Counted from the stretch's first letter, positions 7,922-59,640 are shown. The stretch: 64,000 nucleotides of DNA from Candidatus Omnitrophota bacterium (GCA_043822245.1 JBDRBY010000001.1:4337-68336), one strand, 5' to 3'. Program-made: numbers and translations. Notes: a model not told the origin generated them from the sequence alone.

Positions 7922-8107
7922 GAGCCACCTCCTCTCCAATCATGTAAGCAAACAATTGTTTCAAAATGTCATTTTGAAGTGTACACAAAAACCAATGAAT
8001 AGTCAAGCCATTGTGTGTAATTATTTTAGCTCCGCTACATATTGTTTTTCAAAACAAACATCATGTTAGCATCTGTTAACGCATACGGTTGTTTCGTTGA
8101 TTGTTTT

Positions 8108-41225: not shown

Positions 41226-41290
41226 TTCTCCCCCTGTGTTCGTCGTTCGTCATTCGTCGCTAGTTGCTCGTGGCTCGTTAAGCGGTAGGA
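41226..41290. repeat. Heptamer tandem array (GTNNNTC x7: tgttcgt cgttcgt cattcgt cgctagt tgctcgt ggctcgt) running into the 3' end of the REC-HK gene
   Basis: Read directly; 7-bp periodicity. Confidence 0.6.
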
Positions 41291-42428
41291 GGAAACAAAA
41301 AGAACTGCCCAGTCCATCCGGACGGCTTTCCACCCAAATCCTACCGCCATGCTGCTCTAAAATTTCTTTACAGATTGCCAGGCCCAAACCTGTCCCCTTT
41401 GAACGTTTCGCGTTTTGACTGCCTATCTGCTGAAATTTAGAAAACAATTTTACCTTATCCGCCTCTCGAATGCCTACTCCCGTATCTTCCACACGCACTT
41501 CAACGTTATTCGCGTCCGGATTAACGCTAGAGGATACTGTTATCCCGCCCGTGGTTGTAAACTTTATCGCGTTGTTGATGAGGTTATTGAGCACCTGAAT
41601 AATCTTATCAGAATCGTAAACCACATTCGGCATATCTTTGGCTAACTCCATTTTAAGATACAGATTCTGTTTTTCCGCCACAGGTTTTTGCATTTCCGCG
41701 ACATCCGTAATCACTTTGTTAATGTCGCCTTTCTTCATGTCAAGCTCAGTTTTGCGTACTTCATATTTAGCAAGGCTCAAAAGATCAGCTATAAGCCGAG
41801 CCAGCCTATCAACATTGTCCTCTGCCTTCTTCAAAAAGTTCCTTTGTTTATCGGTAAGTTCCCCCGCGGTATTGCTCATCACAACATCCAGCATAAGCTT
41901 AATAGAAGCCAGAGGTGTGCCTAATTCATGAGACACTTTTGAACTAAATTCCCTCTGCAGCACGTACAAGCCCTGCAATTTTTCATTTAATTTCGCCAAT
42001 TCTTCGTTTTGTTTTTTTACCGACTCGTTAAGACGTTTATTTTCTTCGGATAAATCAAACCTGTTTATGGCCTCTCTAACACAATTTTTCAATTCACTAT
42101 CATCCCAGGGCTTTTCAATAAACCGATAAACCTCACCCAGATTAATCGCGTCTTCCGCGACTTTGATATCAGCATACCCTGTAAACAAAACACGCAGGGT
42201 GCCTGGATATTTTTCATTAACTTTTTTCAAAAATTCTATGCCCGAGATAAGCGGCATCTTTTGATCTGTTATCACTACTTTCACCTTATTTTTTTCCATC
42301 GCTTCTAACGCTTCCGCGTAAGAAGTAGTAACATACACGCCAAAAGCCTCATCTCTGAAAAGCCGTTTTAACGCCTTCAGTATATTCGTTTCATCGTCCA
42401 GAATCACCACGCTTATTTCTTTGGCCAT
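41250..42428 (-). CDS. Hybrid REC-histidine kinase (N-terminal receiver, HisKA, HATPase_c)
   Basis: REC VVILDDE...VVITDQKMP; H-box SHELGTPL; G-boxes DTGVGI, GTGLGLAI. SD GAGGGAG. Confidence 0.75.
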   Translation of the reverse strand: MAKEISVVILDDETNILKALKRLFRDEAFGVYVTTSYAEALEAMEKNKVKVVITDQKMPLISGIEFLKKVNEKYPGTLRVLFTGYADIKVAEDAINLGEVYRFIEKPWDDSELKNCVREAINRFDLSEENKRLNESVKKQNEELAKLNEKLQGLYVLQREFSSKVSHELGTPLASIKLMLDVVMSNTAGELTDKQRNFLKKAEDNVDRLARLIADLLSLAKYEVRKTELDMKKGDINKVITDVAEMQKPVAEKQNLYLKMELAKDMPNVVYDSDKIIQVLNNLINNAIKFTTTGGITVSSSVNPDANNVEVRVEDTGVGIREADKVKLFSKFQQIGSQNAKRSKGTGLGLAICKEILEQHGGRIWVESRPDGLGSSFCFLLPLNEPRATSDE

Positions 42429-42465
42429 GTTACTCCCTCTGTTAAAAAAAAATTAAAATGTAAAA

Positions 42466-44415
42466 TTAAACCGGCAGACAAACTGTAAATTTCGCGCCTT
42501 TTCCTATTTCACTTTCGACATCAATCTTCCCGTTATGCTTTCTTACTATGTCATAACTAATACTCAGGCCAAGCCCAGTACCTTTATCTTTTTCTTTTGT
42601 CGTAAAAAACGGATCAAATATTTTTGTCAAATATTCCTGCCGGATCCCTCCTCCAGTATCGGATATTTCAACGCACACCTGTTTTTCTCTTAGACAAGTC
42701 CTGAGGGTAATAGTCCCCTTCTCTTCTATGGCCTGCGCGGCGTTTAAAATCAAATTAACAAAAACCTGTCCCATCTGCTGCGCGCTACAGTTAACTAAAG
42801 GAATCTTCCCGTAGTCTTTCTTTAGTTCGGCTTTATATTTTATTTCATTCCACACAACGCCTAAAATTCCTTCCACAATTTCATTCAAATCAGAAGGAGT
42901 CATAACCCCCTCATCTCTTCGGGAAAAACTCTTCAAATCTTTAACTATCTTGCTTATTCGGTCAACACCATCCTTCGTCTCTCCAATAAGGTTGTTAATG
43001 TCTTTTACCATAAAATCGGATTCTGTTTTTCCCGCTATCTCGAAAAGCTTATTTTTATACTCTTCAAACGTGTTCAAATTGCTTTTTATAAACCCTATTG
43101 GATTGTTAATTTCATGCGCTATCCCCGCGGCAAGTTGTCCAATAGAAGCAAGTTTTTCTGATTGAACCAGTTGGCTTTGCGCGTCTTTTAAGCTCTCGTG
43201 AGATTTTTTAAGGTCATCCAGCATACTTTTAAGTTTCAATCTTCCCTCTTCGGATTCAATTTCCGCTTTCTTTCTGAGGGAAATATCCTGAAACGATTCC
43301 ACAACGCCCGTTATTTTACCATGCTCAATGAGGGGTGTGGCTGTTAAATGAAAATAACCTTTTCTTTTTACGTTTGAGATTTTGACCTCTTTTTCTATCT
43401 CCAGTTCAACCTTCTTCTCTCCTTTCAATATCCTCTCTATGGTACATAGCTTTGTATGGCAAATATTTCCGAAAAACTGATTGTAACACTTTTGCGTCCC
43501 TGAACACTTTCTTGGCACTCCCAACAGCTCCGCCATAGCGTTATTTACCGCTACAACATTAAAATCCAAATCAACAATACGCATGGCATCACCGGCGCTG
43601 TCAAAAACATTATTCATGTAATCCCTCGAAACCATAGTCTCTTTCAAATTTTCACTCATGAGTTTGAAAGTCTCCGCCAATTTGCCGATTTCATCGTTTT
43701 TGAAAGCGAAATCTATTTTCGCGTCTAAATTTCCTCTTCCTATTTCAGAAGCGGCTTTTTCCAATCGAGTAAGCGGCAGATATACTATGCGTGAAATAAA
43801 TAGCCCTACACCTATGGCAAAAAATAAAGCGATGAAACTTATTACAGTAATGACGGCCGTGGTTATATTTATCTGCTGTACAATCTTTGTCATCGCGGGT
43901 TTTACCCGCTTCTCCGTAACATATTCAATCATCGGCACCATTGCTTCTTCATGCGCGATTTCAAGAAACCTGTCGGCTTCTTTGTCCTTGCGCGTTATGA
44001 GAGTTTTTTCCGCGCCGTGATCAGAAAGATTGAAAGCGTCTTCTATCCCCATCTGATATTTTTGTAAATTCGCGTACAATTTCTCCGCTAAAGATGTCAT
44101 ATATTCTTTTACTTCTACAGGCTGTTTTTGGATATATTCATCCAGGTTTCTATACGCTTTTCCTGAACGCTCTTTAGCTTTCAAATATTCATTGTTACCC
44201 GTTTCGAAAAAGAGACAATGCTTCGCCGCTATCTCTTGATGTTCAAACATCTCCATCATCCGCCACGCGCTCTGTAATAAAAACACAGAGTCATATATCC
44301 GGTATTCAGCTATTTCACGCAGGCGACTGTTCTGAAAAATAACAAACGCTCCCATTATTCCTGACAGGAGCGCGATTCCTACGAAACCTATTACCAGTTT
44401 GCGGCTGATTTTCAT
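42466..44415 (-). CDS. Membrane sensor histidine kinase with a periplasmic/sensor region, HAMP, a Cys-rich PAS domain, HisKA and HATPase_c
   Basis: Two TM segments; HAMP ([24 protein letters not shown]); PAS with [21 protein letters not shown]; H-box AHEINNP; G-boxes [14 protein letters not shown]. Start at the internal ATG at 44415. Confidence 0.75.
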
Positions 44416-44425
44416 TTTTACCTGA

Positions 44426-44839
44426 TCATGGCCTGCGTTCAGGCGACTTATTGACGGAAAAAGTTTTCTGTCCAAAAACTTCTCCGTTCGCGAAAATACG
44501 AAATTCGTATTTTCCCTGATGCTCAAACTTAAGCGCGGCCAAATTAAACACAAGGTCATGAATCGTGAGCGGACTTGTTATCTCTATGTCTTTAGGCATT
44601 TCGCCTTTGCCGATAATGCTGTTTGTTTCTAAGTCAACTAATTCAAGGCAAAATTTATATTTTCCATTCGCGTCGGTAAGCTTTATGTACACCGTAAGTG
44701 AGTGATGCACGCAAGGGAACATATGCGCGCTTATATTCTCAAACACACCAATCAAGCTCTTTTTATTTGTCCCAACTTCCGTAATAATCTTATCGCAGAC
44801 AAGCATCGCGTTTAATATCGGTTTTGACGCTTTTGACAT
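44426..44839 (-). CDS. Hypothetical 137-aa protein, first gene of the phosphorelay operon
   Basis: AAAGGAA SD; predicted beta-rich; no recognisable domain. Confidence 0.35.
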   Translation of the reverse strand: MSKASKPILNAMLVCDKIITEVGTNKKSLIGVFENISAHMFPCVHHSLTVYIKLTDANGKYKFCLELVDLETNSIIGKGEMPKDIEITSPLTIHDLVFNLAALKFEHQGKYEFRIFANGEVFGQKTFSVNKSPERRP

Positions 44840-44855
44840 TTATGTTCCTTTCTTT

Positions 44856-45437
44856 TTATTTCAAAAACAGTTCCACTAATCCCTTTCGTATCATCATAAC
44901 GGCAAAGGCCGCCAAGAAAAGGCTTATTATCTTTGAGAGCGCCTTGGTACCTGTTTTTCCTACTAGTTTTATAATCCCCCCGGCAAAAGAAAATATTATA
45001 CCCGCTAACAAGACGTTGATAACAACTGACAATACAGTTAAATAAGGTCCATATTCTTCAACTAAAATAAGTGTCGCGGTCAAAACCGCGGGGCCAACTA
45101 TGAGCGGTGTCCCAAGCGGAACTATTCCCATTTCATCCAGCGGAACCCGCCGTTTTTTCCCCGGCGTTAAAACGTCCATTATCGCGATAACAAAAAGTAT
45201 ACTTCCGCCCGCGATTAAAAAATCTCCAATGGTTATCCCCACGCTACGGAAAACAAATTTTCCTAAAAAGATAAAACCCACCGCGAGACAAACAGCAACA
45301 CCCATCGACTGAAATATTATCCGTTTTCTCACATTCCCTTTTACCCCACTGGTAAAATTTATAAAAATAGGCAGAACACCTATCGCGTCAACCGCCACAA
45401 AAATCGGTATGAACACAAATAAAAAATTTTTGATCAT
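44856..45437 (-). CDS. MarC-family (UPF0056) integral membrane protein
   Basis: Six TM helices, IFINFTSGVKGNVRKRII and GTPLIVGPAVLT motifs. SD AAGGAAG. Confidence 0.7.
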   Translation of the reverse strand: MIKNFLFVFIPIFVAVDAIGVLPIFINFTSGVKGNVRKRIIFQSMGVAVCLAVGFIFLGKFVFRSVGITIGDFLIAGGSILFVIAIMDVLTPGKKRRVPLDEMGIVPLGTPLIVGPAVLTATLILVEEYGPYLTVLSVVINVLLAGIIFSFAGGIIKLVGKTGTKALSKIISLFLAAFAVMMIRKGLVELFLK

Positions 45438-45454
45438 GTTTCTTCCTTATTTTC

Positions 45455-45654
<200 letters not shown>

Positions 45655-45660
<6 letters not shown>

Positions 45661-46518
45661 ATTGCTTTGTCGTGTTTTTTGACGGTTTTTTTTAATTCGA
45701 AGTTCGGACTCTTCTTCTTGTTCCTGCATCATTTTTCGCAACTTTACCATACACGCCGCTTCTATCTGCCTTACTCTTTCCCTGGTTATCCCAAAATTTT
45801 TCGCGGTGTCTCTCAGGGTATAAGAAATACCATCTTCTCCCAAACCAAAGCGAAGAGCAAGAATTTTCTTTTCTCTATCCGTCATTTTCTCCAACAAGCC
45901 GCTAATTCTCTCATGAAGAAGAAATTTGGAAAGTTCGTCGACAGAGTTGACAATATTCTCATCTTCAATGAGGTCCATAAATTCCGAATCTCCGGACTCT
46001 CCTATCGGCGCGTTTAAACTGGATATGCTTGAGGCCATCCGGCTAAGCTGGCGCACCCGCAGTACCGGCATTCTCATTTTTTTAGCAATATCACTCACTT
46101 GCGGAGTTCTTGCCATTTTCTGCAAGAGATGTTTCTTTACCTTATTAAACCTCATCAACATTTCCATTACATAAACCGGAATGCGGACTGTCTTTCCTTG
46201 GTTCGCGACCGCCCTCGTAATAAACTGTTTAATCCACCACGCCGCGTAAGTACTAAAACGGTACCCTTTATCAGGATCGAACTTGATCACAGCTTTCATC
46301 AAGCCTAAATTCCCCTCCTCTATTAGATCCAGCATAGGAACACCTAAATAACTGTATTTTTTGGCAATATTGATCACTAAACGAAGGTTGCTGTTGATCA
46401 TCCTCTGGCGGGCTTTTTTACTGCCTTTTTTAATCTTGTATGCCAGTTCTTTTTCTTCCACCGCCGTAAGAAGTGGCAGGTCGCGTATGTCCTTTAGATA
46501 AAGTTTTATCGCATCCAT
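45655..46518 (-). CDS. RNA polymerase sigma-70-family factor (regions 1.2-4; RpoD/RpoS-like, 287 aa)
   Basis: Region 2 (DLIEEGNLGLMKAVIKFD...FSTYAAWWIKQ), region 3, region 4 (LRDTAKNFGITRERVRQIE). The ATG at 46518 has no SD and is directly preceded by (ATAACTG)x4. Confidence 0.8.
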
Positions 46519-46711
46519 AGTTCAGTTATCAGTTATCAGTTATCAGTTATCATGTACAACCCACAAAACCTCAAACCAACCACCGATACATTTCCCTCCT
46601 TCTTTTTCAGTTATCAGTAAACAGTCATCAGTTAGCAGTATTCAGTGGAGAGTTAACAACCATCGATAAACAACAAAGCGCTAATCTCTGGTAACTGATC
46701 GCTGGTAACTG
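46519..46711. repeat. 193-bp intergenic region built almost entirely of drifting heptamer repeats: (ATCAGTT)x4 ... (NNNCAGT)x7 ... (TGGTAAC-like)x4
   Basis: Read directly, in 7-bp register: atcagtt atcagtt atcagtt atcagtt ... tttcagt tatcagt aaacagt catcagt tagcagt attcagt ggagagt ... tggtaac tgatcgc tggtaac tgttaac. Confidence 0.75.
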
Positions 46712-49450
46712 TTAACTAAGCACCGCCTGCGCGGCCGCGAGCCTCGCGATAGGCACACGAAATGGAGAACAACTTACATAATCCATACCCGCGTCATAGC
46801 AGAATTTGATAGAATCAGGGTCTCCTCCATGTTCGCCGCAGATACCTACTTTAAGGCCCGGACGCGTTTTCCTGCCGCGTTTTATACCCATTGTAACAAG
46901 CTGCCCAACACCTTCAATGTCTAAAGATTGAAATGGATCTTTATCAAGTATTTTTTTATCCAAATAAGGTGCTAGAAAAGAGCCCATATCATCTCTGGAA
47001 AACCCAAAACTCATCTGCGTAAGATCGTTCGTCCCGAACGAGAAAAACTCAACCTGCTTAGCTATTTTATCCGCGATTAAAGCGGCTCTTGGAATCTCTA
47101 TCATTGTGCCAACCATAAAATTGAGTTTTTTAATTTTATATTTGGCCTTGGTTTCTTCATAAACGCGGTCAACAATCGCCCGTTGATCGCCTATTTCCAT
47201 CTCGCTTCCAACAACCGGAATCATTATTTCGGGAAGGACGGTCCTGCCAGCTTTAACGAGTTCCGCCGAAGCCTCCAGTATGGCCCTAACCTGCATTTCC
47301 GTAATCTCGGGGTACGTAACGCCAAGCCTGACACCGCGGTGCCCCATCATCGGATTACTTTCTTTGAGAAGCGCGACACGTTTTGCAAGGCTTGCCATAT
47401 CCACGCCTAAACTTTTTGCCAGCACCTCCAACTGATCTTTCTGATGCGGCACAAACTCATGCAAAGGTGGATCCAAAAGCCGTATTGTCACAGGAAGCCC
47501 GTCCATCGCTTCAAGCGTACCCTTAATATCGGCCTTTACATAAGGAAACAGCTCATTAAGCGCGGTTTGTCTCTCGCTGACTGATTTCGAAAGTATCATC
47601 TTACGGAGTAAAAAAAGCGGTTGTTCCGCGCCTTCTCCGTAAAACATATGCTCAGTCCTGAAAAGGCCTATACCTTCCGCCCCAAATTCACGCGCTTTTT
47701 TTGCATCCTTCGGAGTATCAGCGTTGGTACGTACCTTTAATTTTCTGATGGAATCGCAAATTTTCAGGTACTTGTCCAATACCATATTTTCTTTTGTGGC
47801 ATCAATCATTGGAAGCACGTCTTTGTAAACAAGGCCTTTTGTCCCATTGAGCGTAATCCAATCACCCTCTTTGAGGACAACGTTTCCAACTTTAACAGTT
47901 TTTTCAGCATGGCTGATTTCGAGGCTAGAGCATCCAACAATACAGCATTTTCCCCAGCCGCGAGCGACAAGCGCGGCATGCGAGGTCATGCCTCCACGGC
48001 CGGTAAGGATTGCCTGCGCCGCTCTCATGCCCTCTACATCTTCGGGATTCGTTTCCTGCCTGACAAGAATAACTTTTTTACCGGCCTTTGCCCATTCCAC
48101 AGAACTCTCTGAATCAAAAACAATCATACCGGAAGCTCCTCCCGGCCCTGCAGGTAGCCCTTTAGCTAGGGGAGTGTTCTTTTTCTCTTCCACTGGATCG
48201 ATAATAGGATGTAAAAGCTCATCCAGTTGCGAGGGCTTTACTCTTACAACCGCTTCCTTATTCGTAATAAGCTTTTCCTTCACCATATCAACCGCCATCT
48301 TAACAGCCGCGGGCCCATTCCGTTTTCCCACGCGCGTCTGCAAAAGAAAAAGCCGGCCTTCCTCAATAGTAAACTCGATATCCTGCATATCACGATAATG
48401 TTTCTCAAGCCTGGCTTGTATCGAATGTAATTCTTTGTAGATTTTCGGCATACAATCCTTCAGCATAACTTCATGTTTATTTTGGTCATTCTGAGAAGCT
48501 TCATTAATCGGCGCGGGCGTCCTTGTCCCTGCTACCACATCCTCTCCCTGCGCGTTGATTAGGTACTCACCATAAAAGTTATTGTCCCCATTCCCCGGAT
48601 TGCGGGTAAACGCGACTCCGGTAGCTGAATTTGTCCCCATGTTTCCAAATACCATTGCCTGAACATTTACCGCGGTACCCCATTCATGAGGAATGTTTTC
48701 TATCCGGCGGTAAGATATCGCTCTTTTGCCGTTCCACGAAGAAAAAACAGCGCCTATCCCACCCCATAACTGTTCACAGGCATCATCCGGGAATTCCTTC
48801 CCCAAAACCTCTTTAATCTTTTTTTTGTATTTCACGCAAATGTCCTTTAGATCGCCCGCATCAAGTTCGGTATCAAGTGTAACGCCCTTCTCTTTTTTCT
48901 TTTGCCCCAAAATCTTTTCAAGTTGATGGCGTATTCCTTTATTCTCTCCAGGCTCAATGCCAGCGGCTTTTTCCATAACCACGTCCGAATACATTGTTAT
49001 AAGCCTGCGGTACGCGTCATAAGCAAAACGTTCTTTTCCGGTTTTTTTAATTATTCCAGCGAGGGTTTTTGTTGTAAGGCCCACATTGAGCACAGTTTCC
49101 ATCATCCCAGGCATTGATTGCCGCGCCCCTGACCGCACAGATACTAAAAGCGGATTTGCTTCATTATCGAACTTTTTACCCATAACTTTTTCGACCTTTT
49201 TCATCGCGGAATTAACTTCCGCCTTGAGCTCTTTCGTATACTTACCACCATTCTCATAAAAATGAGTACACACTTTTGTGGTTATTGTAAATCCGGCAGG
49301 CACAGGAAGTTTAAGGCCAGGATGTCCGGCCATTTCTCCCAAGTTAGCGCCTTTACCGCCCAAAAGATTTTTCATACTTCCTTTCCCATCCGCGTGAGCA
49401 TTTCCGAAAAAATACACATTCTTTTTACCTTTCGCTGTCCCTTTTGTCAT
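46712..49450 (-). CDS. ppdK: Pyruvate, phosphate dikinase
   Basis: ATP-grasp N-terminus (GGKGANLGEM), the phosphohistidine domain and the PEP-utilising C-terminal domain; 912 aa. Confidence 0.9.
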   Translation of the reverse strand: MTKGTAKGKKNVYFFGNAHADGKGSMKNLLGGKGANLGEMAGHPGLKLPVPAGFTITTKVCTHFYENGGKYTKELKAEVNSAMKKVEKVMGKKFDNEANPLLVSVRSGARQSMPGMMETVLNVGLTTKTLAGIIKKTGKERFAYDAYRRLITMYSDVVMEKAAGIEPGENKGIRHQLEKILGQKKKEKGVTLDTELDAGDLKDICVKYKKKIKEVLGKEFPDDACEQLWGGIGAVFSSWNGKRAISYRRIENIPHEWGTAVNVQAMVFGNMGTNSATGVAFTRNPGNGDNNFYGEYLINAQGEDVVAGTRTPAPINEASQNDQNKHEVMLKDCMPKIYKELHSIQARLEKHYRDMQDIEFTIEEGRLFLLQTRVGKRNGPAAVKMAVDMVKEKLITNKEAVVRVKPSQLDELLHPIIDPVEEKKNTPLAKGLPAGPGGASGMIVFDSESSVEWAKAGKKVILVRQETNPEDVEGMRAAQAILTGRGGMTSHAALVARGWGKCCIVGCSSLEISHAEKTVKVGNVVLKEGDWITLNGTKGLVYKDVLPMIDATKENMVLDKYLKICDSIRKLKVRTNADTPKDAKKAREFGAEGIGLFRTEHMFYGEGAEQPLFLLRKMILSKSVSERQTALNELFPYVKADIKGTLEAMDGLPVTIRLLDPPLHEFVPHQKDQLEVLAKSLGVDMASLAKRVALLKESNPMMGHRGVRLGVTYPEITEMQVRAILEASAELVKAGRTVLPEIMIPVVGSEMEIGDQRAIVDRVYEETKAKYKIKKLNFMVGTMIEIPRAALIADKIAKQVEFFSFGTNDLTQMSFGFSRDDMGSFLAPYLDKKILDKDPFQSLDIEGVGQLVTMGIKRGRKTRPGLKVGICGEHGGDPDSIKFCYDAGMDYVSCSPFRVPIARLAAAQAVLS

Positions 49451-49467
49451 TGTCTTTCCTCTCCTTT

Positions 49468-49545
49468 TTTCAACCGTCCGCTGTCCGCCGCCCGCCTATG
49501 AGCGACTAGCAACTAGCGACTATGCACCCAACCTACTATCCACAT
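49468..49545. repeat. Heptamer arrays (CCGTCCG CTGTCCG CCGCCCG) and (GCGACTA GCAACTA GCGACTA) between ppdK and glyQS
   Basis: Read directly. Confidence 0.65.
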
Positions 49546-50824: not shown

Positions 50825-51606
50825 AGTTTAACACCTGCCATTTGTATATCATCAAGAAACTTCAATGATTTAACCGGCCTGTCTATATGATACTTCATAA
50901 AGCGGCCAAGAATTTTCTCTGTCTCTTTCCCCACTTCTCTGGAAACTTTGATACCCATTGTTTTTACCATCGGGCTTCTCTGAATGTTACGGATAAACTT
51001 TATTGTCCCCAAAGATATACTTAAATTTGTTCCTCCGTTTTTTTTCACACACATTCCGCATACCAGGCCACCGTCTCGCACACTGAACAGAAAACTACTC
51101 TGGTTGTCTATCTGTGCCGTACAAAGCACGCATCTTTCAAACTCTGGCGCCATACCTAATGCCTTTAAAAATTTCAATTCAAATATCCGAGCCGTACGTT
51201 TAGCACTGGAAGTTGTGCTTAACATTTTAAGGCTTTCGCATAAAACCTGATATAAGTCCTCATTTACATCATAATCATCGCTAACCACATCTACTAATTC
51301 TATAAAATAATTCGCGTATGTCAACCTTTCTATATCTTTTCTTATGGGAAGAAAAAAATCCAAGGCCTCACATTGAGTTATGAGGTCTAGAGTTCTTCTG
51401 TTTTTTTTATAAAAGATCAGCTGACAGCGCGTAAAAATTTCAAAATTTCCGGCAAATTGCGGATACGGTTTTCGTACACCTTTCATTACGCCCTTTATTT
51501 TTCCAAAGTCCTTTGTATACACAACCAGTATGTAACTCGTTTCCCGCAGGAAATATTTGCGCAGAACAACCCCCTCTGCCTTCAAAACGCCCCTACTCCT
51601 ATCCAC
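50821..51606 (-). CDS. recO: DNA repair protein RecO
   Basis: OB-fold N-terminus and Cys4 zinc motif (CVLC...CGMC); 261 aa. Confidence 0.75.
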   Translation of the reverse strand: MDRSRGVLKAEGVVLRKYFLRETSYILVVYTKDFGKIKGVMKGVRKPYPQFAGNFEIFTRCQLIFYKKNRRTLDLITQCEALDFFLPIRKDIERLTYANYFIELVDVVSDDYDVNEDLYQVLCESLKMLSTTSSAKRTARIFELKFLKALGMAPEFERCVLCTAQIDNQSSFLFSVRDGGLVCGMCVKKNGGTNLSISLGTIKFIRNIQRSPMVKTMGIKVSREVGKETEKILGRFMKYHIDRPVKSLKFLDDIQMAGVKL

Positions 51607-51670
51607 TTCTTCACCATCCCCTATCCCCTATTCACTATTCACTATTCACTAACCCCTATTCACCATCCGG
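51596..51670. repeat. Heptamer array (CNCYATY x8: caccatc ccctatc ccctatt cactatt cactatt cactaac ccctatt caccatc)
   Basis: Read directly, between recO and the DUF502 gene. Confidence 0.7.
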
Positions 51671-52282
51671 CGCCACCGAACCTCCGGAAATCACAAGTTT
51701 CATCCCCTCTTCCACGCTCATTTTTAAAAAACATACATCGCTTTTCGGCACCGCCAAAAAAACACCGCTTGTGGGATTCGGCGTAGTAGGGACAAAAACA
51801 TTAACCCCACCGGGACCTATCTCCCCCTTTATCTCGCCTTTCGCGAGGCCTGTGATAAAACCAACCGAGTATAATCCCTTACGCGGATACTCGATAAGAA
51901 CAACTTGTTTAAATATGGTCTTTCCATGTCCAAAAAACGCTGAAAAAATCTGCTTCGCGGCATTGTAAAACTTTCCCATAACCGGCACATTGAGAAGAAG
52001 TCTTTCTCCTAAAACGAAAATTCTTTTAATAAAAATTATTTTCGCGCCCCATCCAAACATGGCTACAGTAAAAACAACGGCACAAAAGATTACAATTCTT
52101 GCCGCGTACACGCGGTAAGGCCCGCTTATCATAGGCGCGAAAAATCCCATTATGGGATCTAGCACCATTTTATTCATCTGCAAAACTAAAAACCTAATAA
52201 GCGCTACTGTTATTATCACAGGCAGTAAGATCACAATTCCATTAATGAAATTTATAAAAAAACCATTCCATACCCTCTTCAT
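51656..52282 (-). CDS. DUF502-family membrane protein
   Basis: N-terminal TM pair and conserved DUF502 core; 208 aa. Confidence 0.55.
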   Translation of the reverse strand: MKRVWNGFFINFINGIVILLPVIITVALIRFLVLQMNKMVLDPIMGFFAPMISGPYRVYAARIVIFCAVVFTVAMFGWGAKIIFIKRIFVLGERLLLNVPVMGKFYNAAKQIFSAFFGHGKTIFKQVVLIEYPRKGLYSVGFITGLAKGEIKGEIGPGGVNVFVPTTPNPTSGVFLAVPKSDVCFLKMSVEEGMKLVISGGSVAPDGE

Positions 52283-52311
52283 AATTGCTCCCGCCTTCTG
52301 GTATCAGGGCA

Positions 52312-53037: not shown

Positions 53038-53458
53038 TTTCTTTTCTCCTCATTACAGATCTATCTCTGTTAGTTTTATCTCTGTATCCGTCTAAATGCA
53101 GTATACCATGTATGACATAAAGAAGGGTTTCGTCAAAAAATGTTGTCCGATAGATTTTGGTATTTTTCACGGCTCTGTCCAGGGAAATAATTATATCTCC
53201 CAAAAAGTTACGCTCACAGATTTCTGTGTAGTCTCTTCGAGCACTTCGCGCGGGAAACGCTATCACATCGGTTGAAGTGTCCTTACCGAAATAGACACGT
53301 TTAAACACCCGTATTTTCTGGCTTGTCACCAGCATTATGTTTAATTCCGCATTATTTTTTTTAAGCAATTTTAAAATTTTCTCCGCGGCCAGTTTTAATT
53401 TGGCAAGACTAATTTTTCTTTTGCTGTTTTGGTTTTTGATATTTACCCTTACCATCAT
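53000..53458 (-). CDS. ybeY: rRNA maturation endoribonuclease YbeY
   Basis: HGILHLDGY zinc motif; 152 aa. Confidence 0.8.
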   Translation of the reverse strand: MMVRVNIKNQNSKRKISLAKLKLAAEKILKLLKKNNAELNIMLVTSQKIRVFKRVYFGKDTSTDVIAFPARSARRDYTEICERNFLGDIIISLDRAVKNTKIYRTTFFDETLLYVIHGILHLDGYRDKTNRDRSVMRRKEIELIQKIGKISE

Positions 53459-55664
53459 TGCCAGCCCTTCTATCCTGAGATTTTAAACTGGTTTCAGGAT
53501 AATCTAACCTTGTATGAAAAGTACCAATAAGCACCCGCACAAAACTTTCCGCGATTTTATACATCTCCTTCAGCGTAAGAGCGCAGTCATCAAGCTGTCC
53601 GTCAATAAACTTGTTGTTTATAATCTTCTTTACCAGATTTCTTATGCTTGAAGGAGTGGGGTCATCAAGCGCCCTGCTTGATGCTTCAACGGAATCCGCT
53701 AAAAGTATGATAGCGCTTTCTTTTGTCTGAGGTTTCGGCCCTTCATAACGAAAATCTTCTTCTTTTACGGATACGTCATTCCCCGCTTTTTCCATAGCTT
53801 TTTGATAAAAATAAGATATCAACCCGTCACCATGATGTTGTGTGATAAAGTCAATGATCAATGTGTGAAGTTTGTGTTTTTTGGCTATATCCACGCCGTC
53901 TTTCACGTGTTTTGAAATAATAAGGGCGCTCATAGAAGGCGTTAGTTTTGAATGCCGGGAAGGCGCGCCCATTTCATTCTCGCTGAAATATTCAGCCTTA
54001 GGAATTTTTCCAATATCATGAAAATACGCTCCTACCCTTGCCTGCAGGCTGTTTGCACCAATGGCATTACACGCGGCTTCTGCCAAATTTCCAACCATTA
54101 TGCTGTGATGATAAGTTCCCGGAGCTTCTATGGCCAGCTCTTTTAGTAAAGGATGGTTCAGATCCGAGAGTTCTAAAAGGCTTATATTAGTCGGTACTTT
54201 AAAAAAATACTCAAAAGCTGGTAAAAGCCCCATAACCATAAATCCTGAAAATAGACCGCTAGCCACGCCCCAAATACCGTCTCTTATGTAGTGTTCCGCT
54301 TCTATCTGATTGATTAAACCTATGCATACTATGGCGGTAAATTTCGCTACCCCTGCCAGAAGGCCTGCCCATAAGATGTTCGCGCGCCTCCTCGTATCTC
54401 TTACCGCAAAGATACCAACCATACTGCCTGTCAAAAGCACCAACATGACTTCTATCCCCCCGCCTACCAAAAGGGATATTAGAAGACTTATCACAACGAC
54501 ACTAAGAAACGCCATATTCGCGCCAACAAGAAGCATGATAAGCATGCCCATGCCTGCCATTGGGATGAAATAGCTGGGTTGCGGGGAACGCGTAATAAAA
54601 TCGGAGATAAGAATTATAAAGAACATATTCAGAAGGATAATCGCTATTTCTTTCGTATTTTGCAAAAAATTAGTCTTTCGGATGAAAGAAATATAAATAA
54701 CTGAAATCAACCCTAATAACAAAAATAAAAGAAGTATCCCAATAAAAAATGTCGGAGTAGTCCCCGGTTTAAAAATTCTTCTAAGCTTTGTTATCTGGGC
54801 AAGATGACGCGCGTTTACTCTTTTTCCTTTTTCTATTATAAGTTCGTTTTTTTCCACCTGCCAACTAAGATATGCCGGCTCAACTTTTTTAACAGCGATA
54901 TCTCTTTCTTCACCGGTTCTTTTCTGGTCAATTTTAATGTTGGGCACGGCATATTCTGAAATAACCGCGGTAACGGCCTGCTTTAACCGCCGGTTACCTT
55001 CAAATTGTTCCGGAATACAATCGGATGTGTCAGATTGTATTTTTGTTTTATCTAAAAGTTCTTCCACTTTTTTTTCGCTTGATGAAGAGGCCTCTTCATC
55101 AACCACCACAATTAGATTCGCGTTTTCCTTTTTCAAATAAACTAAATCTTCATCACTTACGCACCCCGCCAAAAAAATCCTTTTAATAATTTCCGCGCTT
55201 TTAGCTTTCAAAGCCAGAGTGTCAGGATACTCCAGCAGGTATTTAAGATTTTTCTCTGAAACTTTTACTTTTAGTTTTTTGTTTAGCACCTCTATTTTTT
55301 CCGCGAGAGGGCTCTCGTTCTCTTTTTCAGCGTCAAGAATGTCAAAAAAATCTTCAAGAGCGAATATGGCCTTTTCCTCAAGCTGTGAATTTCGTTGAAA
55401 AAAATACGGCGCTTTTTGAATCACTGCCTGTTTTGCCTTTTCCATACGTTCTTCATCAATCCCCCAAAAATAGGAAAAATCATAAGGGGCATACACGTTT
55501 CTTAACGCGATATCTCCTTCGTGCACATCCCTTTGATACAACTGCGGGCTTATGAATACACTGTAAAGCGCCGCGGCAAGAAACGCGAGTATGAAAAGAA
55601 ATGAAACTATTTCCTTTTGTCTGGCTTCTTTTATCGCGTCCCGCATTTTACGTATTTTAATCAT
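53409..55664 (-). CDS. pgpH: 7TM-receptor-type HD phosphohydrolase (PgpH/YqfF-like cyclic-di-AMP phosphodiesterase family)
   Basis: An N-terminal extracytoplasmic domain, 7 TM helices and a C-terminal HD domain (HSIMVGNLAEAA...HDIGK). The conserved order is pgpH-ybeY-dgkA. Confidence 0.75.
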   Translation of the reverse strand: MIKIRKMRDAIKEARQKEIVSFLFILAFLAAALYSVFISPQLYQRDVHEGDIALRNVYAPYDFSYFWGIDEERMEKAKQAVIQKAPYFFQRNSQLEEKAIFALEDFFDILDAEKENESPLAEKIEVLNKKLKVKVSEKNLKYLLEYPDTLALKAKSAEIIKRIFLAGCVSDEDLVYLKKENANLIVVVDEEASSSSEKKVEELLDKTKIQSDTSDCIPEQFEGNRRLKQAVTAVISEYAVPNIKIDQKRTGEERDIAVKKVEPAYLSWQVEKNELIIEKGKRVNARHLAQITKLRRIFKPGTTPTFFIGILLLFLLLGLISVIYISFIRKTNFLQNTKEIAIILLNMFFIILISDFITRSPQPSYFIPMAGMGMLIMLLVGANMAFLSVVVISLLISLLVGGGIEVMLVLLTGSMVGIFAVRDTRRRANILWAGLLAGVAKFTAIVCIGLINQIEAEHYIRDGIWGVASGLFSGFMVMGLLPAFEYFFKVPTNISLLELSDLNHPLLKELAIEAPGTYHHSIMVGNLAEAACNAIGANSLQARVGAYFHDIGKIPKAEYFSENEMGAPSRHSKLTPSMSALIISKHVKDGVDIAKKHKLHTLIIDFITQHHGDGLISYFYQKAMEKAGNDVSVKEEDFRYEGPKPQTKESAIILLADSVEASSRALDDPTPSSIRNLVKKIINNKFIDGQLDDCALTLKEMYKIAESFVRVLIGTFHTRLDYPETSLKSQDRRAGNDGKGKYQKPKQQKKN

Positions 55665-56077
55665 TTAACCCACTCTTCTTCCTCTATAACGTTATGTTTG
55701 GCTACTACCGCGGGTTTAACCACCCCTTTGGTCACTTCCAAATCTTTCTTTATTACTTCTTGCGGCAATTCGGTCACTTCAGGGATATTTTGCGAGGCTT
55801 GCTGTTTTTTTAATCGGGGTTGTTTGTCTTTCTTTTTCATGACAAATAAATTTTCATCAAGCTCTACATCTACACCCATAAACGTTCTTGTCGCTTTTTT
55901 ATTACTTTTGGGCGCTTCGGGAACATTTCCCGTCACATACCCTCGATTTCCGTGTATTTTTTGATCCACCCTATCTTCTTCAAACGTGTAAATATCAATT
56001 TTTTTTACCGCGGGATTGGCACATCCTGTCATCGAAAAAACAGCAATCATAGCGAGCATCACAAACATATTCAACAT
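55661..56077 (-). CDS. Lipoprotein, hypothetical
   Basis: Lipobox SMTGC after the signal peptide. Confidence 0.45.
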   Translation of the reverse strand: MLNMFVMLAMIAVFSMTGCANPAVKKIDIYTFEEDRVDQKIHGNRGYVTGNVPEAPKSNKKATRTFMGVDVELDENLFVMKKKDKQPRLKKQQASQNIPEVTELPQEVIKKDLEVTKGVVKPAVVAKHNVIEEEEWVK

Positions 56078-56129
56078 TTCCCCTCCCTTTTGTTTATTGA
56101 GTACTGTCGAAATTTTTTATTCGTACCAA

Positions 56130-57923
56130 TTACCCGTTATCCTCGAGTTTTATCCCTAATTCTCTTAACTGTCTGTCATCAACGCTTGACGGCGCTCCGG
56201 TAAGAGGGCAACTACCTTTTTGTGTTTTCGGAAAAGGTATCACCTCCCGGATTGATAAATCTTTCGAAAAAAACGTCAGGAGACGGTCCAAACCAAACGC
56301 TATTCCACCATGCGGAGGCGGCCCATAACAAAAAGCCTCCAATAAAAAACCAAATTTTTTTTCACATTCGTCTTTGGCAAGACCAAGCACATCGAATATC
56401 TCCTGTTGGATATCTCTCCTATGAATCCTTATGCTCCCCGAACCTATTTCACTACCGTTTAAAACCAAATCATAAGAACGTGATTTTACTTTTGATAACT
56501 CACGTTTTTTTATTAGATCTAGATCTTCATCCCAAAAAGACGTAAACGGATGATGCTCTGATACCCATCTATTCTCTTCTTTGTTATATTGAAAAAGCGG
56601 AAAATTTACTATCCACAAAAAATTAAATTTATCTTCATCAATGAGCTTTTTCTCTTTCCCTATTTTTAAACGCAGCGCCCCCAATGCTTCACACGCAAGG
56701 CGCCTGGAATCAGCGACCATAAATATCATGTCACCGGATTTCGCGCCCGTTTTTTCGCGAATCTCGCGTAATACTTCTTCGGAAAAAAACTTTGCTATGG
56801 GCGAAGTGAATTTTTCCCCTTCGACTTTAAAGTAAGCAAGCCCCTTCGCTCCATACCCCGCGACAAAAGAGGTGAGATCATCTATCTCTCGCCGGCTTAC
56901 GCTTCCATACTCAGGAGCGGCTAAAGCCATAACACAGCCTTCTTCTTCAATACACGTTTTGAATACCTTAAAGGAGCTATTTTTAACCTCCTGCGAAATA
57001 TCATTTAAACGCATATCAAACCGAGTATCCGGCTTATCTGAACCGTATTGATTCATCGCGTCTTCGTAATCCATTCTCACGAACGGAACTTTAATCTTGC
57101 TACCAAAAATTTCTTCAAAAATGCCCTGAAATAAATGTTCACATACCTTAAAAATGTCTTCTTCGTCAACAAATGACATTTCTATATCCAGTTGCGTGAA
57201 TTCCGGTTGTCTGTCAGAACGAAGATCCTCATCACGAAAACAGCGGGCGATTTGAAAATATTTTTCTACGCCTGAGACCATTAAAAGCTGTTTAAATAGC
57301 TGCGGGGATTGAGGTAACGCGTAAAAATAACCTTTCTGTGTTCTTGAAGGAACAAGATAATCCCTCGCTCCCTCCGGAGTAGATTTGGTCAACATGGGCG
57401 TTTCAATCAATAAAAAACCTTCTTTATCAAGAAAATCGATTATCTTCTTATAAACTTTGTGTTTTATCGCTATCTTTTTCTGCATCACGGGCCTTCTCAA
57501 ATCAAGATAACGATATTTGAGCCGTACATCCTCCGCCACATCAAGCGCGTCTTTAATCTCAAAAGGCGGGGTTTCAGAGGTTGATAACACTTCAACTTTT
57601 TTTACTTCTACCTCAATTTCACCCGTTGATATCTTTGAATTAACAGTGCCGCGAGGCCTGGCTGAAACTTTGCCAAAAATTTTTACGCAAAATTCACCAC
57701 GCAGACAGTGCGCCTCTTTGTGAGCCAACTCGTTCTTCTCAGGGTCAAAAACTACCTGTGTCAACCCGTGCTTATCTCTCAGATCCATGAAGATTATCTC
57801 TCCATGATCTCTCTGTGACGCGATCCATCCGCACAAAAAAACTTCTTTGCCAATATCCTTTGAAGTAAGTTCTCCACAATTATGAGTCCTTAACATAATC
57901 TCCCTCTTCTTACTGATTCCCAC
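56130..57923 (-). CDS. aspS: Aspartate--tRNA ligase
   Basis: Anticodon-binding OB fold, class II catalytic core and GAD insertion domain; 597 aa. Confidence 0.9.
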   Translation of the reverse strand: MGISKKREIMLRTHNCGELTSKDIGKEVFLCGWIASQRDHGEIIFMDLRDKHGLTQVVFDPEKNELAHKEAHCLRGEFCVKIFGKVSARPRGTVNSKISTGEIEVEVKKVEVLSTSETPPFEIKDALDVAEDVRLKYRYLDLRRPVMQKKIAIKHKVYKKIIDFLDKEGFLLIETPMLTKSTPEGARDYLVPSRTQKGYFYALPQSPQLFKQLLMVSGVEKYFQIARCFRDEDLRSDRQPEFTQLDIEMSFVDEEDIFKVCEHLFQGIFEEIFGSKIKVPFVRMDYEDAMNQYGSDKPDTRFDMRLNDISQEVKNSSFKVFKTCIEEEGCVMALAAPEYGSVSRREIDDLTSFVAGYGAKGLAYFKVEGEKFTSPIAKFFSEEVLREIREKTGAKSGDMIFMVADSRRLACEALGALRLKIGKEKKLIDEDKFNFLWIVNFPLFQYNKEENRWVSEHHPFTSFWDEDLDLIKKRELSKVKSRSYDLVLNGSEIGSGSIRIHRRDIQQEIFDVLGLAKDECEKKFGFLLEAFCYGPPPHGGIAFGLDRLLTFFSKDLSIREVIPFPKTQKGSCPLTGAPSSVDDRQLRELGIKLEDNG

Positions 57924-57942
57924 TTTGAAAAACTATCATCAA

Positions 57943-59238
57943 TTATGACGAGGTATCCTCTCGAAAACAACCGGTATTAAAATGCTTCCTTAATTTATTT
58001 TTCGCATTTTCAATCGTTAAAGATTCCTGACTGCCGGTTTTCATATCTTTAAGGATGAGTTCCCTCTTTTTCACTTCCTCATCACCTATTAAAACTACAA
58101 ACCCTTTTTTATCCCGATGGGCCATGCGCATTTGGCCTTTGAAAGAACGGCCCGTATGGTCCACTTCACAAGAAATGCCTGCTTCCCAAAATCGAGAGGC
58201 AGTTTTAAAAACTTCGGCGTAATTTTTTTCATCAATAGGGATCACAAGTATTCCCTGTGAATCCGGAAGAATTTCTTTTTCCTTCAGGATCAAAGCCAAT
58301 CTTTCTATCCCTACCGCGTACCCTGTGGCAGGAGTGTCATGCCCTCCCATTTGTTCAGCAAGATTATCATATCTGCCTCCCGCGGCCACAGCATCCTGGC
58401 CGCCCAAGTCCGGATGGACCACTTCAAATATAATCCCGGTATAGTAGTCTAGGCCACGCACCATATCCCGAGTCTCTTTAAAAGGGATGTTCAAATCTGA
58501 AAGAATGTTTTTAAAAGAAGTATATCCGTTTTCGCAGGTTCCGCACAGATACGACAAAATATTTGGTGAATTTTTAACTACCTGAGCGCATTTTTCTTTT
58601 TTGCAATCAAGCACGCGCAGCACGTTTGTTTCAACGCGCCTCTGACAGTCTTCGCATAGTGAATCTCTTTTTTTAGCCAAATATTCACCCAGCTCTTTTT
58701 TATACACAATCCTGTCTTTACCACATCCTAATGAATTAATCAGGATAGTAAAATTTGTAATTCCGAGACCTTTGAGCAGTAGATAAAGTGAAAATATAAG
58801 TTCCGCGTCAACATAAGGGCTCTTAGATCCCAAGATCTCAGCGCCTATCTGATGAAACTGGCGCAGTCGCCCTTTTTGTGGCCTCTCTCCCCTAAACATC
58901 GCTCCAAGATAAAACAGCTTAAGAATATCCGTGGAATTATATTTCCCGTTTTCTATGACAGCTCTTATGACTGATGCTGTTCCTTCCGGCCGGAGAGATA
59001 CATCCCTGTTGGACCTATCTTTAAATGAATACATCTCTTTCTCGACAATATCCGTACTTCCGCCTATGCTCCTGGTAAAAAGCGCTGTCTCCTCAAGCAG
59101 AGGCGTCCGGATCTCTCCATACCCAAACACTTTGAACACAGCGCGCGAGTGTTCCTCTATGCGGCGCATGATGTCAGATTCCGGCGGAAATATATCCGTC
59201 ATCCCCCTCAATGATCTATACTTCAGATTATTCCCCAT
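57943..59238 (-). CDS. hisS: Histidine--tRNA ligase
   Basis: Class II motifs and HisRS anticodon-binding domain; 431 aa. Confidence 0.85.
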   Translation of the reverse strand: MGNNLKYRSLRGMTDIFPPESDIMRRIEEHSRAVFKVFGYGEIRTPLLEETALFTRSIGGSTDIVEKEMYSFKDRSNRDVSLRPEGTASVIRAVIENGKYNSTDILKLFYLGAMFRGERPQKGRLRQFHQIGAEILGSKSPYVDAELIFSLYLLLKGLGITNFTILINSLGCGKDRIVYKKELGEYLAKKRDSLCEDCQRRVETNVLRVLDCKKEKCAQVVKNSPNILSYLCGTCENGYTSFKNILSDLNIPFKETRDMVRGLDYYTGIIFEVVHPDLGGQDAVAAGGRYDNLAEQMGGHDTPATGYAVGIERLALILKEKEILPDSQGILVIPIDEKNYAEVFKTASRFWEAGISCEVDHTGRSFKGQMRMAHRDKKGFVVLIGDEEVKKRELILKDMKTGSQESLTIENAKNKLRKHFNTGCFREDTSS

Positions 59239-59264
59239 GGTTTATTCCATCTTCTGTTTTCTCA

Positions 59265-59543
59265 TCAGCGCCCCTCAACATCTAACTTCATCTTCATCCC
59301 TGACCTGAAACAAACGACTTTTTTATCGGGGATAGCTACATTTTCACCCGTTCTTGGGTTTCGTCCCGCTCTGCCTTTACGCGTCTTAACTTTAAAAATT
59401 CCAAAATTTCTTAATTCAATTTTATCACCACGGCACAGACTATTTACCATCACATCGAAAGCCCTTTGTACAACATCCTTCACCATTATCTGCTTAAACC
59501 CAGTATCCTCAGCTATCTTCATTATAATATCTTTCTTGGTCAT
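59265..59543 (-). CDS. hup: HU/IHF-family nucleoid-associated DNA-binding protein
   Basis: GFGxFxxxxRxxRxGRNPxTGE arm motif; 92 aa. Confidence 0.85.
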   Translation of the reverse strand: MTKKDIIMKIAEDTGFKQIMVKDVVQRAFDVMVNSLCRGDKIELRNFGIFKVKTRKGRAGRNPRTGENVAIPDKKVVCFRSGMKMKLDVEGR

Positions 59544-59545
59544 AT

Positions 59546-59640
59546 TTTCCCCTCCTCTTTGATTAGCGTATAGCGAATAGCGTATGGCCTATAAGCCCTA
59601 AACGCTATCCGCTATTCGCTAAATAAGTCCTTATGCTATC
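59546..59640. repeat. Inverted heptamer arrays (ATAGCGN x3 ... CTANNCG x4), forming the long imperfect palindrome TTAGCGTATAGCGAATAGCG...CGCTATCCGCTATTCGCTAA between dnaE and hup
   Basis: Read directly. Confidence 0.7.

Follow-up and report, generated by a model that had tools for sequence, protein, structure and literature searches.

Heptanucleotide tandem arrays in a conserved housekeeping gene cluster of a Candidatus Omnitrophota bacterium and the hairpins predicted from their inverted pairs

What are the short tandem repeats that stand in the spacers of a housekeeping gene cluster of a Candidatus Omnitrophota bacterium, how did they arise, and do they matter to the genes between which they lie? 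The question comes from a stretch of 64,000 nucleotides (GCA_043822245.1 JBDRBY010000001.1:4337-68336; the whole stretch is called the window here, and positions are counted from its first letter), in which a first-pass annotation had noticed heptamer arrays between 41,226 and 59,640. The spacers that hold them belong to the conserved co-directional housekeeping cluster dnaE-hup-hisS-aspS-7TM-HD-ybeY-dgkA-DUF502-recO-glyS-ppdK-rpoD-tRNA-Arg, and the genes around them are all on the minus strand, on which every array described below is read. Heptamer repeats have been known since 1990, and the cyanobacteria Calothrix and Nostoc carry short tandemly repeated repetitive (STRR) heptanucleotides. 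The arrays of the window are heptanucleotide simple-sequence repeats (SSRs) of this known class (STRR-like, or long simple sequence repeats, LSSRs), now found in Omnitrophota. On balance, we lean towards the view that they were built by slippage, that their inverted pairs form selected RNA hairpins, and that the direct arrays are near neutral.

The period itself is unambiguous. Across the whole 64-kb window, 35-nt segments with at least 24 matches at lag k were counted for k = 2 to 15; a census with segments scaled to the period is not comparable across periods, and the fixed length was used instead. Lag 7 gave 83 such segments and lag 14 gave 20, every other lag from 2 to 15 gave none, and all the lag-7 and lag-14 segments lay inside 41.2-59.7 kb. 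Period 7, with its harmonic 14, is the sole tandem period detected in the window and is restricted to spacers. Tandem Repeats Finder (TRF) placed period-7 arrays at nine places (41238-41278, 45572-45615, 45632-45658, 46522-46552, 49474-49496, 49501-49522, 51599-51668, 59564-59582, and 59603-59621), with the units GTTCGTC, GAATAGT/CACTATT, TCAGTTA, CCGTCCG, AGCGACT, CTATCCA, and TAGCGAA/CGCTATC in 2.7-9.9 copies, most of the arrays being degenerate (70-90% matches). Spacers were taken from a simple gene call (58 open reading frames (ORFs), 90% coding), and each was compared with 2000 dinucleotide-preserving shuffles. Six spacers had 15-21 of 21 lag-7 matches each, against a shuffle mean of ~10 (p<=0.0005 per spacer); admitting all lags from 2 to 15 still gave p<=0.012. 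The six intergenic segments of the first-pass annotation thus hold up, with the units found by TRF as they had been named and a period-7 signal above shuffled controls (p<=0.0005 each). Arrays occur in 6 of the 8 spacers in 41-60 kb and in 0 of the 22 in 1-41 kb (Fisher p=4.7e-5). As in LSSRs, at least three 7-nt copies stand head to tail, the arrays are longer than composition predicts, and their length changes by whole units between related genomes, here at the rpoD site (2, 3, and 4 units). An assembly artefact is very unlikely, because the arrays are just 20-90 nt long and similar ones are found in the independent assemblies of relatives from several projects.

The site in front of rpoD bears on how the arrays arose. 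There, GA (TAACTGA)x4 ACT (46519..46552) lies immediately 5' of the rpoD/sigA-like ATG (46518-46516), with 21/21 lag-7 matches and four perfect copies at 46522-46549. The ATG had been described as directly following four heptamers with no Shine-Dalgarno sequence (SD); the four TAACTGA copies are there and no SD lies between them and the ATG, but the last copy ends 3 nt (ACT) before it. This ATG is the conserved start, with an MDAIK N-terminus in ~20 orthologs, and rpoD orthologs often have no SD even where no array is present. In the nearest relatives (loci L110 and L111 of our set of related loci), the sigma protein is 89-90% identical to that of the window, and the orthologous pre-ATG arrays read GATAACC GACAACA in L110 and GATAACC GATAACC GACAACC in L111, against GATAACT x4 in the window. 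This series of 2, 3, and 4 copies, with a C-to-T change in all four copies of the window, makes an origin by slippage in 7-nt steps well supported, in line with the slipped-strand expansion suggested earlier. Little weight attaches to the accompanying point that a 7-bp period does not match the helical repeat, since 21 bp, or three units, make two turns. In such a process, slippage of the strands would lengthen or shorten arrays by 7 nt at a time, point mutations would erode them afterwards, and turnover between species would be fast.

The word TAACTGA is itself known. MacGregor (2015) described direct TAACTGA repeats in marine Beggiatoaceae, 15 cyanobacteria, and 5 Bacteroidetes, mostly in forward orientation, a few nucleotides from a start codon and without a ribosome-binding site, some of them overlapping the end of the upstream ORF, and proposed both a site for a post-transcriptional regulator and horizontal spread (PMC4679880). 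The rpoD array shares with them the exact word in four direct forward copies, the position 3 nt before the start, and the lack of an SD; also alike are the overlap of the upstream ORF end in some arrays, the interspersed variant heptamers, and the essential downstream gene. Several features differ. The host belongs to the phylum Omnitrophota, and there is one perfect TAACTGA set in 64 kb (the other 12 occurrences of the word are outside any perfect direct-repeat set), against 169 sets per Beggiatoa genome (PMC4679880). Where MacGregor's repeats form many TAACTGA sets and related heptamers seldom recur in tandem, the 19 kb of the cluster hold tandem copies of at least four other words, and an inverted partner array stands upstream of rpoD here, whereas the Beggiatoa genome has only one inverted set (PMC4679880). 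Since the orthologous arrays of the nearest relatives read GATAACC (TAACCGA), the comparison shows that TAACTGA at rpoD arose locally from such an array. The (TAACTGA)x4 array touching the rpoD ATG would then combine the start-codon-proximal anatomy of the MacGregor repeats with a local derivation, and might tune SD-independent initiation. We found no sign at the rpoD site of a common origin of the word by horizontal spread, and as TAACTGA can arise locally, the argument for horizontal transfer that was built on it is weakened.

The rest of the rpoD 5' region is more composite than first thought. The whole 193 bp had been described as heptameric; instead, three arrays (46519-46552, 46606-46645, and 46684-46711) are separated by non-repetitive sequence with an SD and a short upstream ORF (uORF). 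The middle array is a degenerate TAACTGA-like one (GAATACT GCTAACT GATGACT GTTTACT GATAACT GA, 46606..46645), and the third is in inverted orientation (CAGTTAC CAGCGAT CAGTTAC CAGAGAT, 46684..46711), directly after the ppdK stop (46712-46714). Neither is present in L110 or L111. Between the ATG-proximal and middle arrays, an SD (GGAGGG, 46594-46599) precedes a 6-codon uORF, ATG TAT CGG TGG TTG GTT TGA (46591-46571). This strong SD+ATG (GGGAGGGGAGnATGTCGG) is kept upstream of rpoD in the three closest genomes, namely, the window, L111 (~1320-1345), and L110 (~1700-1715); the uORF that it opens has 6 codons in the window and 7 in L111, and in L110, where the gene is called with 302 aa, the ATG is in frame with sigma. 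In L081 and L084, the purine-rich motif is kept, but a small hairpin follows in place of the ATG. The CAGTTAC array is complementary to the TAACTG units of both downstream arrays. In a local fold it pairs with the middle array (-32 kcal/mol, z=-2.6 relative to shuffles, as for all folds here), and in the fold of the full region it pairs with the ATG-proximal TAACTGA array instead (z=-2.3); the signal in this region is marginal.

Inverted pairs of one word stand at three loci of the window, with predicted RNA stems of 16-24 bp, and the tRNA-Arg locus is one of them. The tRNA-Arg(CCT) gene (45493..45566; ARAGORN, Rfam tRNA 69 bits) is bracketed by inverted arrays, as the first-pass annotation had seen, and the locus folds as RNA with z=-6.1. 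The 5' leader array reads ACTATTC ACCATTC ACTAACA ACTATCC ACTATAC ACTTTTC TATTC (45567..45615), and the 3' trailer array, TTGTGTA TAGTGGA TAGTGAA TGG (45468..45492), pairs with 45581-45606. Further upstream, the array ATAGATA GTGAATA GTGGTTA GTGAATA GTGGATG (45626..45662) overlaps the sigma stop codon (45655-45657). The 96 nt between that stop codon and the tRNA are all in one 7-nt register and consist, in order, of five GTGAATA/GTGGTTA-type units, a 14-nt loop, and seven ACTATTC-type units. The leader array is shared between two partners, its 3' part pairing with the trailer array and its 5' part with the 45626-45660 array. In the minimum free energy fold, a perfect 16-bp helix between leader 45581-45596 and the trailer encloses the tRNA cloverleaf, and a hairpin of ~19 bp after the sigma stop has 45626-45662 as its 5' arm and 45567-45615 as the partner. 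The leader and trailer of a stable RNA thus lie in a long duplex in the predicted fold, as at sites of the RNase III type. The trailer array begins directly after the discriminator base, where CCA would be encoded. The gene is without an encoded 3' CCA and has TTG after the discriminator A (45490-45493); encoded CCA is present in 12/12 orthologous tRNA-Arg(CCT) genes of relatives, the window gene being the sole exception among 13.

Arrays also stand around this tRNA in relatives, in other arrangements. L083 has a GTGAATN/CACTATT hairpin before tRNA-Arg, of the same word family as in the window; by our own reading of its sequence (the hairpin itself was computed), one arm matches apart from an extra 7-nt unit that is bulged out, which again fits slippage by whole units. 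L009 has direct arrays at tRNA-Arg, L042 has an inverted heptamer pair directly after it, and the L111 contig ends within a GTGRTGN array directly after the sigma stop. Separately, L003 (~13890-14030) has a ~45-nt direct repeat upstream of tRNA-Arg that takes in the first 12 nt of the tRNA (GTCCCCGTAGCT). It resembles a partly duplicated tRNA 5' end, such as an integrating element leaves behind.

Another inverted pair, TTAGCGA ATAGCGG ATAGCGT ... ACGCTAT TCGCTAT ACGCTAA (59560..59622), lies in the spacer from dnaE (stop 59658) to an HU/IHF-family gene (SD/ATG 59543), and forms a predicted RNA hairpin of ~24 bp (z=-5.4). The HU-hisS spacer of L042 (3470-3506) has the same word family (ATAGCGT TTAGCGG ATAGCGT). 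In neighbouring spacers of dnaE-hup-hisS, L042 and the window share the near-identical string ATAGCGG ATAGCGT nTAGGG, and their HisRS proteins are only 46% identical; one word common to both among ~100 arrays is within chance expectation.

The predicted folds show the hairpin architecture of these inverted pairs, and related genomes suggest what it may be worth. Among relatives with ppdK-rpoD spacers of more than 20 nt, 11/15 have a strong hairpin there, of unrelated sequence (z -2.9 to -7.9). These are ordinary GC-rich hairpins; in L003, the hairpin is a different inverted heptamer pair (CAGGTNT/ACCTGAA) that ends within 7 nt of the ATG (z=-5.6). Because relatives have GC-rich hairpins in the ppdK-rpoD spacer, and some of them heptamer hairpins with another word, we take the hairpin as the selected unit, and it is probably the functional unit in this spacer. 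Inverted pairing of neighbouring arrays is also a general property that extends to unrelated genomes. In a census of 93 non-redundant sources, where arrays at most 400 nt apart were counted as neighbouring, reverse-complement words were found in 17/49 neighbouring array pairs against 100/5026 pairs from different sources, a 17-fold enrichment to which nine unrelated sources contribute.

About half of the arrays form inverted pairs of one word, and their transcript or single-stranded DNA can fold into long, imperfect stems of 16-24 bp: the leader-trailer clamp of tRNA-Arg, the stem after the rpoD stop, that of the dnaE-hup spacer, and that connecting the ppdK stop with the stretch before the rpoD ATG. 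From the conservation of position and the turnover of sequence, we infer that the hairpins may be RNA processing, stability, or attenuation elements. The hairpin would be the selected unit, recognised as double-stranded RNA (RNase III-like) and not as an intrinsic terminator, and the heptamer arrays would be the evolvable material of which it is built here. Intrinsic (Rho-independent) termination was considered and rejected: the arrays lack the combination of a GC-rich stem and a T-tract, the stems at the tRNA locus and in the dnaE-hup spacer continue into mixed sequence and not into a T-tract, none of the 23 terminator-like sites in the window falls on an array, and no T-tract terminator is predicted there. 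Promoter-like sites are not enriched at the arrays, and their total count is under the shuffle mean; one such site (59661-59633) lies upstream of the dnaE-hup hairpin. An Rfam scan of the window returned the tRNA and an unrelated riboswitch, with no match at any array and none between the inverted arrays of the other loci.

The remaining arrays are direct only. The one at 41232..41289 (ACGAGCC ACGAGCA ACTAGCG ACGAATG ACGAACG ACGAACA) encodes the C-terminal nine residues of a hybrid histidine kinase together with its stop codon (41250-41252), and 2 nt (CA) separate it from the SD (GGGGGAG) of a response regulator (ATG 41222); it has 16/21 lag-7 matches against a null of 9.9, and its RNA is unstructured (z=-0.68). 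Two adjacent arrays, TAGTCGC TAGTTGC TAGTCGC and CGGGCGG CGGACAG CGGACGG (49474..49522), lie upstream of the ppdK SD and ATG (49450), the TAGTCGC array overlapping the GlyRS stop (49520-49522), and show no RNA structure (z=-0.14). Upstream of recO, ~10-12 units of GTGAATA/GGGGATA/GGTGAAG (51586..51674; TRF 9.9 copies, lag-7 19/21) fill the whole spacer from the DUF502 stop (51656) to the recO start (TTG 51585 or GTG 51606), and their RNA is likewise unstructured (z=-0.5). In relatives, the DUF502-recO spacer is roughly 5-50 nt, as estimated from tblastn coordinates. These direct-only arrays, before the response regulator, ppdK, and recO, would be unstructured spacer and are probably near neutral. 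Word families recur across loci in both orientations, CACTATT at the tRNA and recO, and TAGCGA at 41256, 49500, and 59560.

The gene contents of the cluster settle which genes could be affected. By Pfam, the order is DnaE, HU, HisRS, AspRS, 7TM-HD protein, YbeY, DgkA/PAP2, DUF502, RecO, GlyRS, PPDK, and a sigma-70 protein, followed by tRNA-Arg(CCT), MarC, DUF6941, two histidine kinases, and the response regulator. The sigma-70 protein has regions 1.2-4, and its homologs are annotated as primary sigma factor RpoD/SigA. The best PPDK matches (75-80% identity) are in Candidatus Omnitrophota metagenome-assembled genomes, where the gene order is kept. It had been suggested that the arrays could affect rpoD, ppdK, glyQS, and dnaE. 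The first two can stay, since arrays precede the response regulator, the tRNA, rpoD, ppdK, recO, and the HU gene. The other two fall away, as glycyl-tRNA synthetase is a single-chain protein of 434 aa and the array at 51596-51670 is upstream of recO, while that at 59546-59640 is downstream of dnaE and upstream of the HU/IHF gene.

Among related Omnitrophota loci, period-7 arrays are present in L003, L006, L009, L042, L083, and L111, and none were found in L001, L002, L005, L008, L010, or L084, nor in the relative P0004 (16 contigs, L103-L109). They also occur in unrelated Ignavibacteriaceae, Chitinophagaceae, Saprospiraceae, and Fibrobacterota and in several unassigned metagenome contigs. Over 80 genome loci, lag 7 is the commonest non-trivial period with the fixed 35-nt segment, in agreement with published surveys. 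L091 and L092, which are from the same organism, have one common array that is identical in both. Words common to different taxa were considered as a sign of a common factor and set aside: with one mismatch allowed, chance alone makes ~2% of unrelated array pairs agree, and shared words are therefore not usable as such evidence. In L090 (10805-11246), a gene for a PF05635 '23S rRNA intervening sequence protein' stands between inverted heptamer arrays (GAATGAA... / ...TTCATTC); it has a sigma-factor gene on one side and tRNA-Asn on the other, and the second array abuts the tRNA. A general link of the arrays to such genes was rejected, L090 being a single case and the window having none.

How well does selection on hairpins compare with what mutation alone could do? 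The main rival is that all of this is near-neutral mutational debris, slippage making the arrays, template switching or quasipalindrome correction making their inverted partners, and the spacers tolerating insertions. We consider this unlikely, though it deserves to be taken seriously. It accounts for the patchy presence among close relatives, the ~85 nt of arrays gained fast since the split from L110 and L111, the degeneracy of the units (70-90% matches), and the loss of the encoded CCA of the tRNA where an array abuts, as if overwritten; the 70-nt recO array also appears as a pure insertion, because the recO spacer of relatives is so much shorter (roughly 5-50 nt). Debris would not be expected to keep hairpins in the same spacer across the family with unrelated sequences, including the different heptamer pair in L003, nor to make the tRNA leader and trailer arms perfectly complementary over 16 nt though adjoining units within each arm differ. 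The 17-fold enrichment of reverse-complement words among neighbouring arrays points the same way, but a mutational mechanism could yield it as well. Indeed, the reading that we prefer, slippage-built arrays whose inverted pairs form selected hairpins, has to face this and other difficulties. Inverted pairs could arise purely mutationally, for example by template switching, without selection. Arrays are wholly missing from many close relatives (L001, L002, L005, L010, and others), so that nothing here is indispensable. The full rpoD 5' region folds just marginally better than shuffles (z about -2.2), and nothing in this reading explains why the arrays crowd into 41-60 kb and are absent from 1-41 kb. 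Variant units follow one another in the same sequence at 45626-45659 and 51634-51667 (88% identity over 34 nt), and 41256-41276 is a 90% reverse complement of 49500-49520 over 21 nt; such likenesses between arrays 6-8 kb apart hint at copying between loci, which would go beyond simple local slippage. The sigma protein was found in one assembly only, and exact look-ups with sigma, HU, and GlyRS gave no same-species comparison.

Other explanations give the arrays a role of a different kind. They might be multimeric sites for a sequence-specific RNA- or DNA-binding protein (S1-, Csp-, or CsrA-like, after MacGregor) with a regulon across the cluster, which we regard as improbable. The forward (TAACTGA)x4 array, 3 nt from the SD-less ATG of a primary-type sigma gene as in Beggiatoaceae, would fit, as would the recurrence of the CACTATT and TAGCGA word families at separate loci in both orientations, the TAGCG array in the same cluster of the distant relative L042, and the altered regulator-dependent reporter output on deletion of the Nostoc recO heptamers (bioRxiv 10.1101/2022.06.06.494920). 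A single factor is hard to reconcile with at least four to five different words within 19 kb, with the other words that stand at the rpoD site of the nearest relatives (TAACCGA) and of L003 (AACCTGA), and with rpoD orthologs that are often SD-less without any array; moreover, among ~100 arrays, shared 5-7-mers are expected by chance near the observed rate (~2% of pairs). That the arrays are contingency (phase-variation) loci, in which reversible gain and loss of units changes spacing or frame and switches downstream expression, seems very improbable to us. Copy number at the rpoD site does differ between species, every 7-nt step shifts the frame because 7 is not a multiple of 3, and from the upstream ATG the reading frame runs across the repeat into sigma in L110 but ends as a short uORF in the window and L111. 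Against this, the downstream genes are essential housekeeping genes rather than genes concerned with the surface or with host interaction, slippage rates are lowered by the degeneracy of most arrays, and most arrays lie outside ORFs, two clipping the last codons of the upstream gene and one possibly overlapping the recO start. We give least credence to the arrays being remnants or ends of small mobile elements with heptamer terminal inverted repeats, resembling miniature inverted-repeat transposable elements or intervening sequences (IVSs). The inverted arrays around the PF05635 gene next to a tRNA in L090, the distant arrays with the same order of variant units, and the heptamers at the processing stem of the Coxiella IVS (PMC4990558) recall such elements, but the window has no transposase, IVS-protein gene, or target-site duplication, a tblastn search with the L090 PF05635 protein matches L090 alone, and the inverted arrays enclose a conserved syntenic tRNA gene that is also present in relatives without arrays.

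As a class, the arrays resemble several known systems without coinciding with any. With the cyanobacterial STRRs they share the 7-nt unit, the tandem and intergenic arrangement, and several word families per genome, and the likeness that had been drawn to them is apt in kind; it does not extend to the words, none of those searched occurring here, nor to the host. Three STRR words, CCCCAGT, TTGGTCA, and CAACAGT, are absent from the window as doublets with up to one mismatch on either strand, and so are doubled GGGGATT, GGGGACT, GACCAAT, GACTAAT, and TTTTGAA (Nostoc words). The Xanthomonas word and one of the two Geobacter words, searched likewise, do not occur in the window. Rehm et al. (2015) described the heptamer SSRs GGGAATC in Xanthomonas and GGGGA(T/C)T in Nostoc, with inverted heptamer pairs in both that are potential stem-loops; like the arrays of the window, these are intergenic (2-26 units), and at a given gene pair both their length and their sequence vary from one close species to another (PMC4692102). 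Unlike them, they are G-rich and form quadruplexes, whereas the arrays here are mostly not G-rich, only the recO array having GGGGATA units, and the words are different. In the summaries of PMC4679880 and PMC4692102, Mrazek (2007) is reported to have found heptanucleotides the most over-represented long simple repeats and to have proposed polymerase slippage. Geobacter metallireducens has dispersed (GGGACCG)x4 and (MTYCTGA)x5 elements, proposed to be regulatory (Aklujkar et al. 2009; PMC2700814). The CTGA core of the latter is common to the TAACTGA of the window and the AACCTGA of L003, but the Geobacter elements are multicopy families aligned genome-wide, some of them within genes (PMC2700814). 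In Nostoc, a heptamer deletion upstream of recO alters regulator-dependent reporter output (bioRxiv 10.1101/2022.06.06.494920). In the Coxiella 23S IVS, GACAGAT x2-3, variable between strains, stands at the 5' RNase III cut site (Warrier et al. 2016; PMC4990558); as in the window, inverted repeats flank a stable RNA or excised segment in a long duplex, but the enclosed RNA is a tRNA here, and the stems are of 16-24 bp, imperfect, and known from predicted folds. Finally, repetitive extragenic palindromic (REP) sequences and the bacterial interspersed mosaic elements (BIMEs) are also repeated, hairpin-forming, and located in operon spacers, but REPs are unit palindromes with a fixed consensus and not tandem 7-mers.

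Some features elsewhere in the window were recorded in passing. A cyclic di-GMP-I riboswitch (25802-25891 (+), Rfam RF01051, 66 bits vs a gathering score of 35) immediately precedes an ORF with a GH113 glycoside hydrolase domain (25872-27011) and overlaps its start. A REP-like hairpin word, CCCTTTTTCAAAGGGGGGAA, has 8 copies against 0.03 expected, all on the plus strand and in spacers of the first 41 kb (2080-2183, 14245, 15416, 19847, and 38507), four of them as tandem 28-nt units, and no copy in 41-64 kb, where the heptamers are. Within a 354-nt spacer, at 8105-8290, a block of TTAAATAGGGACGTCACCCATTTAT units is duplicated and each time followed by the hairpin GAGACGCGATAAATCGCGTCTC.

From a biological perspective, these arrays extend heptamer repeats to a new phylum, Omnitrophota, and provide, at one orthologous site, a clean series of 2, 3, and 4 copies in which a base change has been homogenised. 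Annotators should be aware that such arrays may break assemblies, mask gene starts, as at the SD-less rpoD, and overwrite features, as with the encoded CCA of the tRNA. Inverted heptamer pairs stand where relatives have ordinary hairpins, which raises the idea that arrays are adjustable hairpin arms. One could go further and imagine, although we think this a long shot, that arrays in many phyla would be a way to build and retune long RNA 'zipper' hairpins unit by unit, with several pairing registers, selection keeping the junction stems while the sequence turns over; the CAGTTAC array, alternating between the middle and (TAACTGA)x4 arrays and acting with the conserved SD+uORF, would then be a translational switch for the primary sigma factor. 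If this were true, the ppdK-rpoD-tRNA-Arg junctions would be zipper hairpins that recur, built from other words, in several lineages of Omnitrophota and also in bacteria less closely related.

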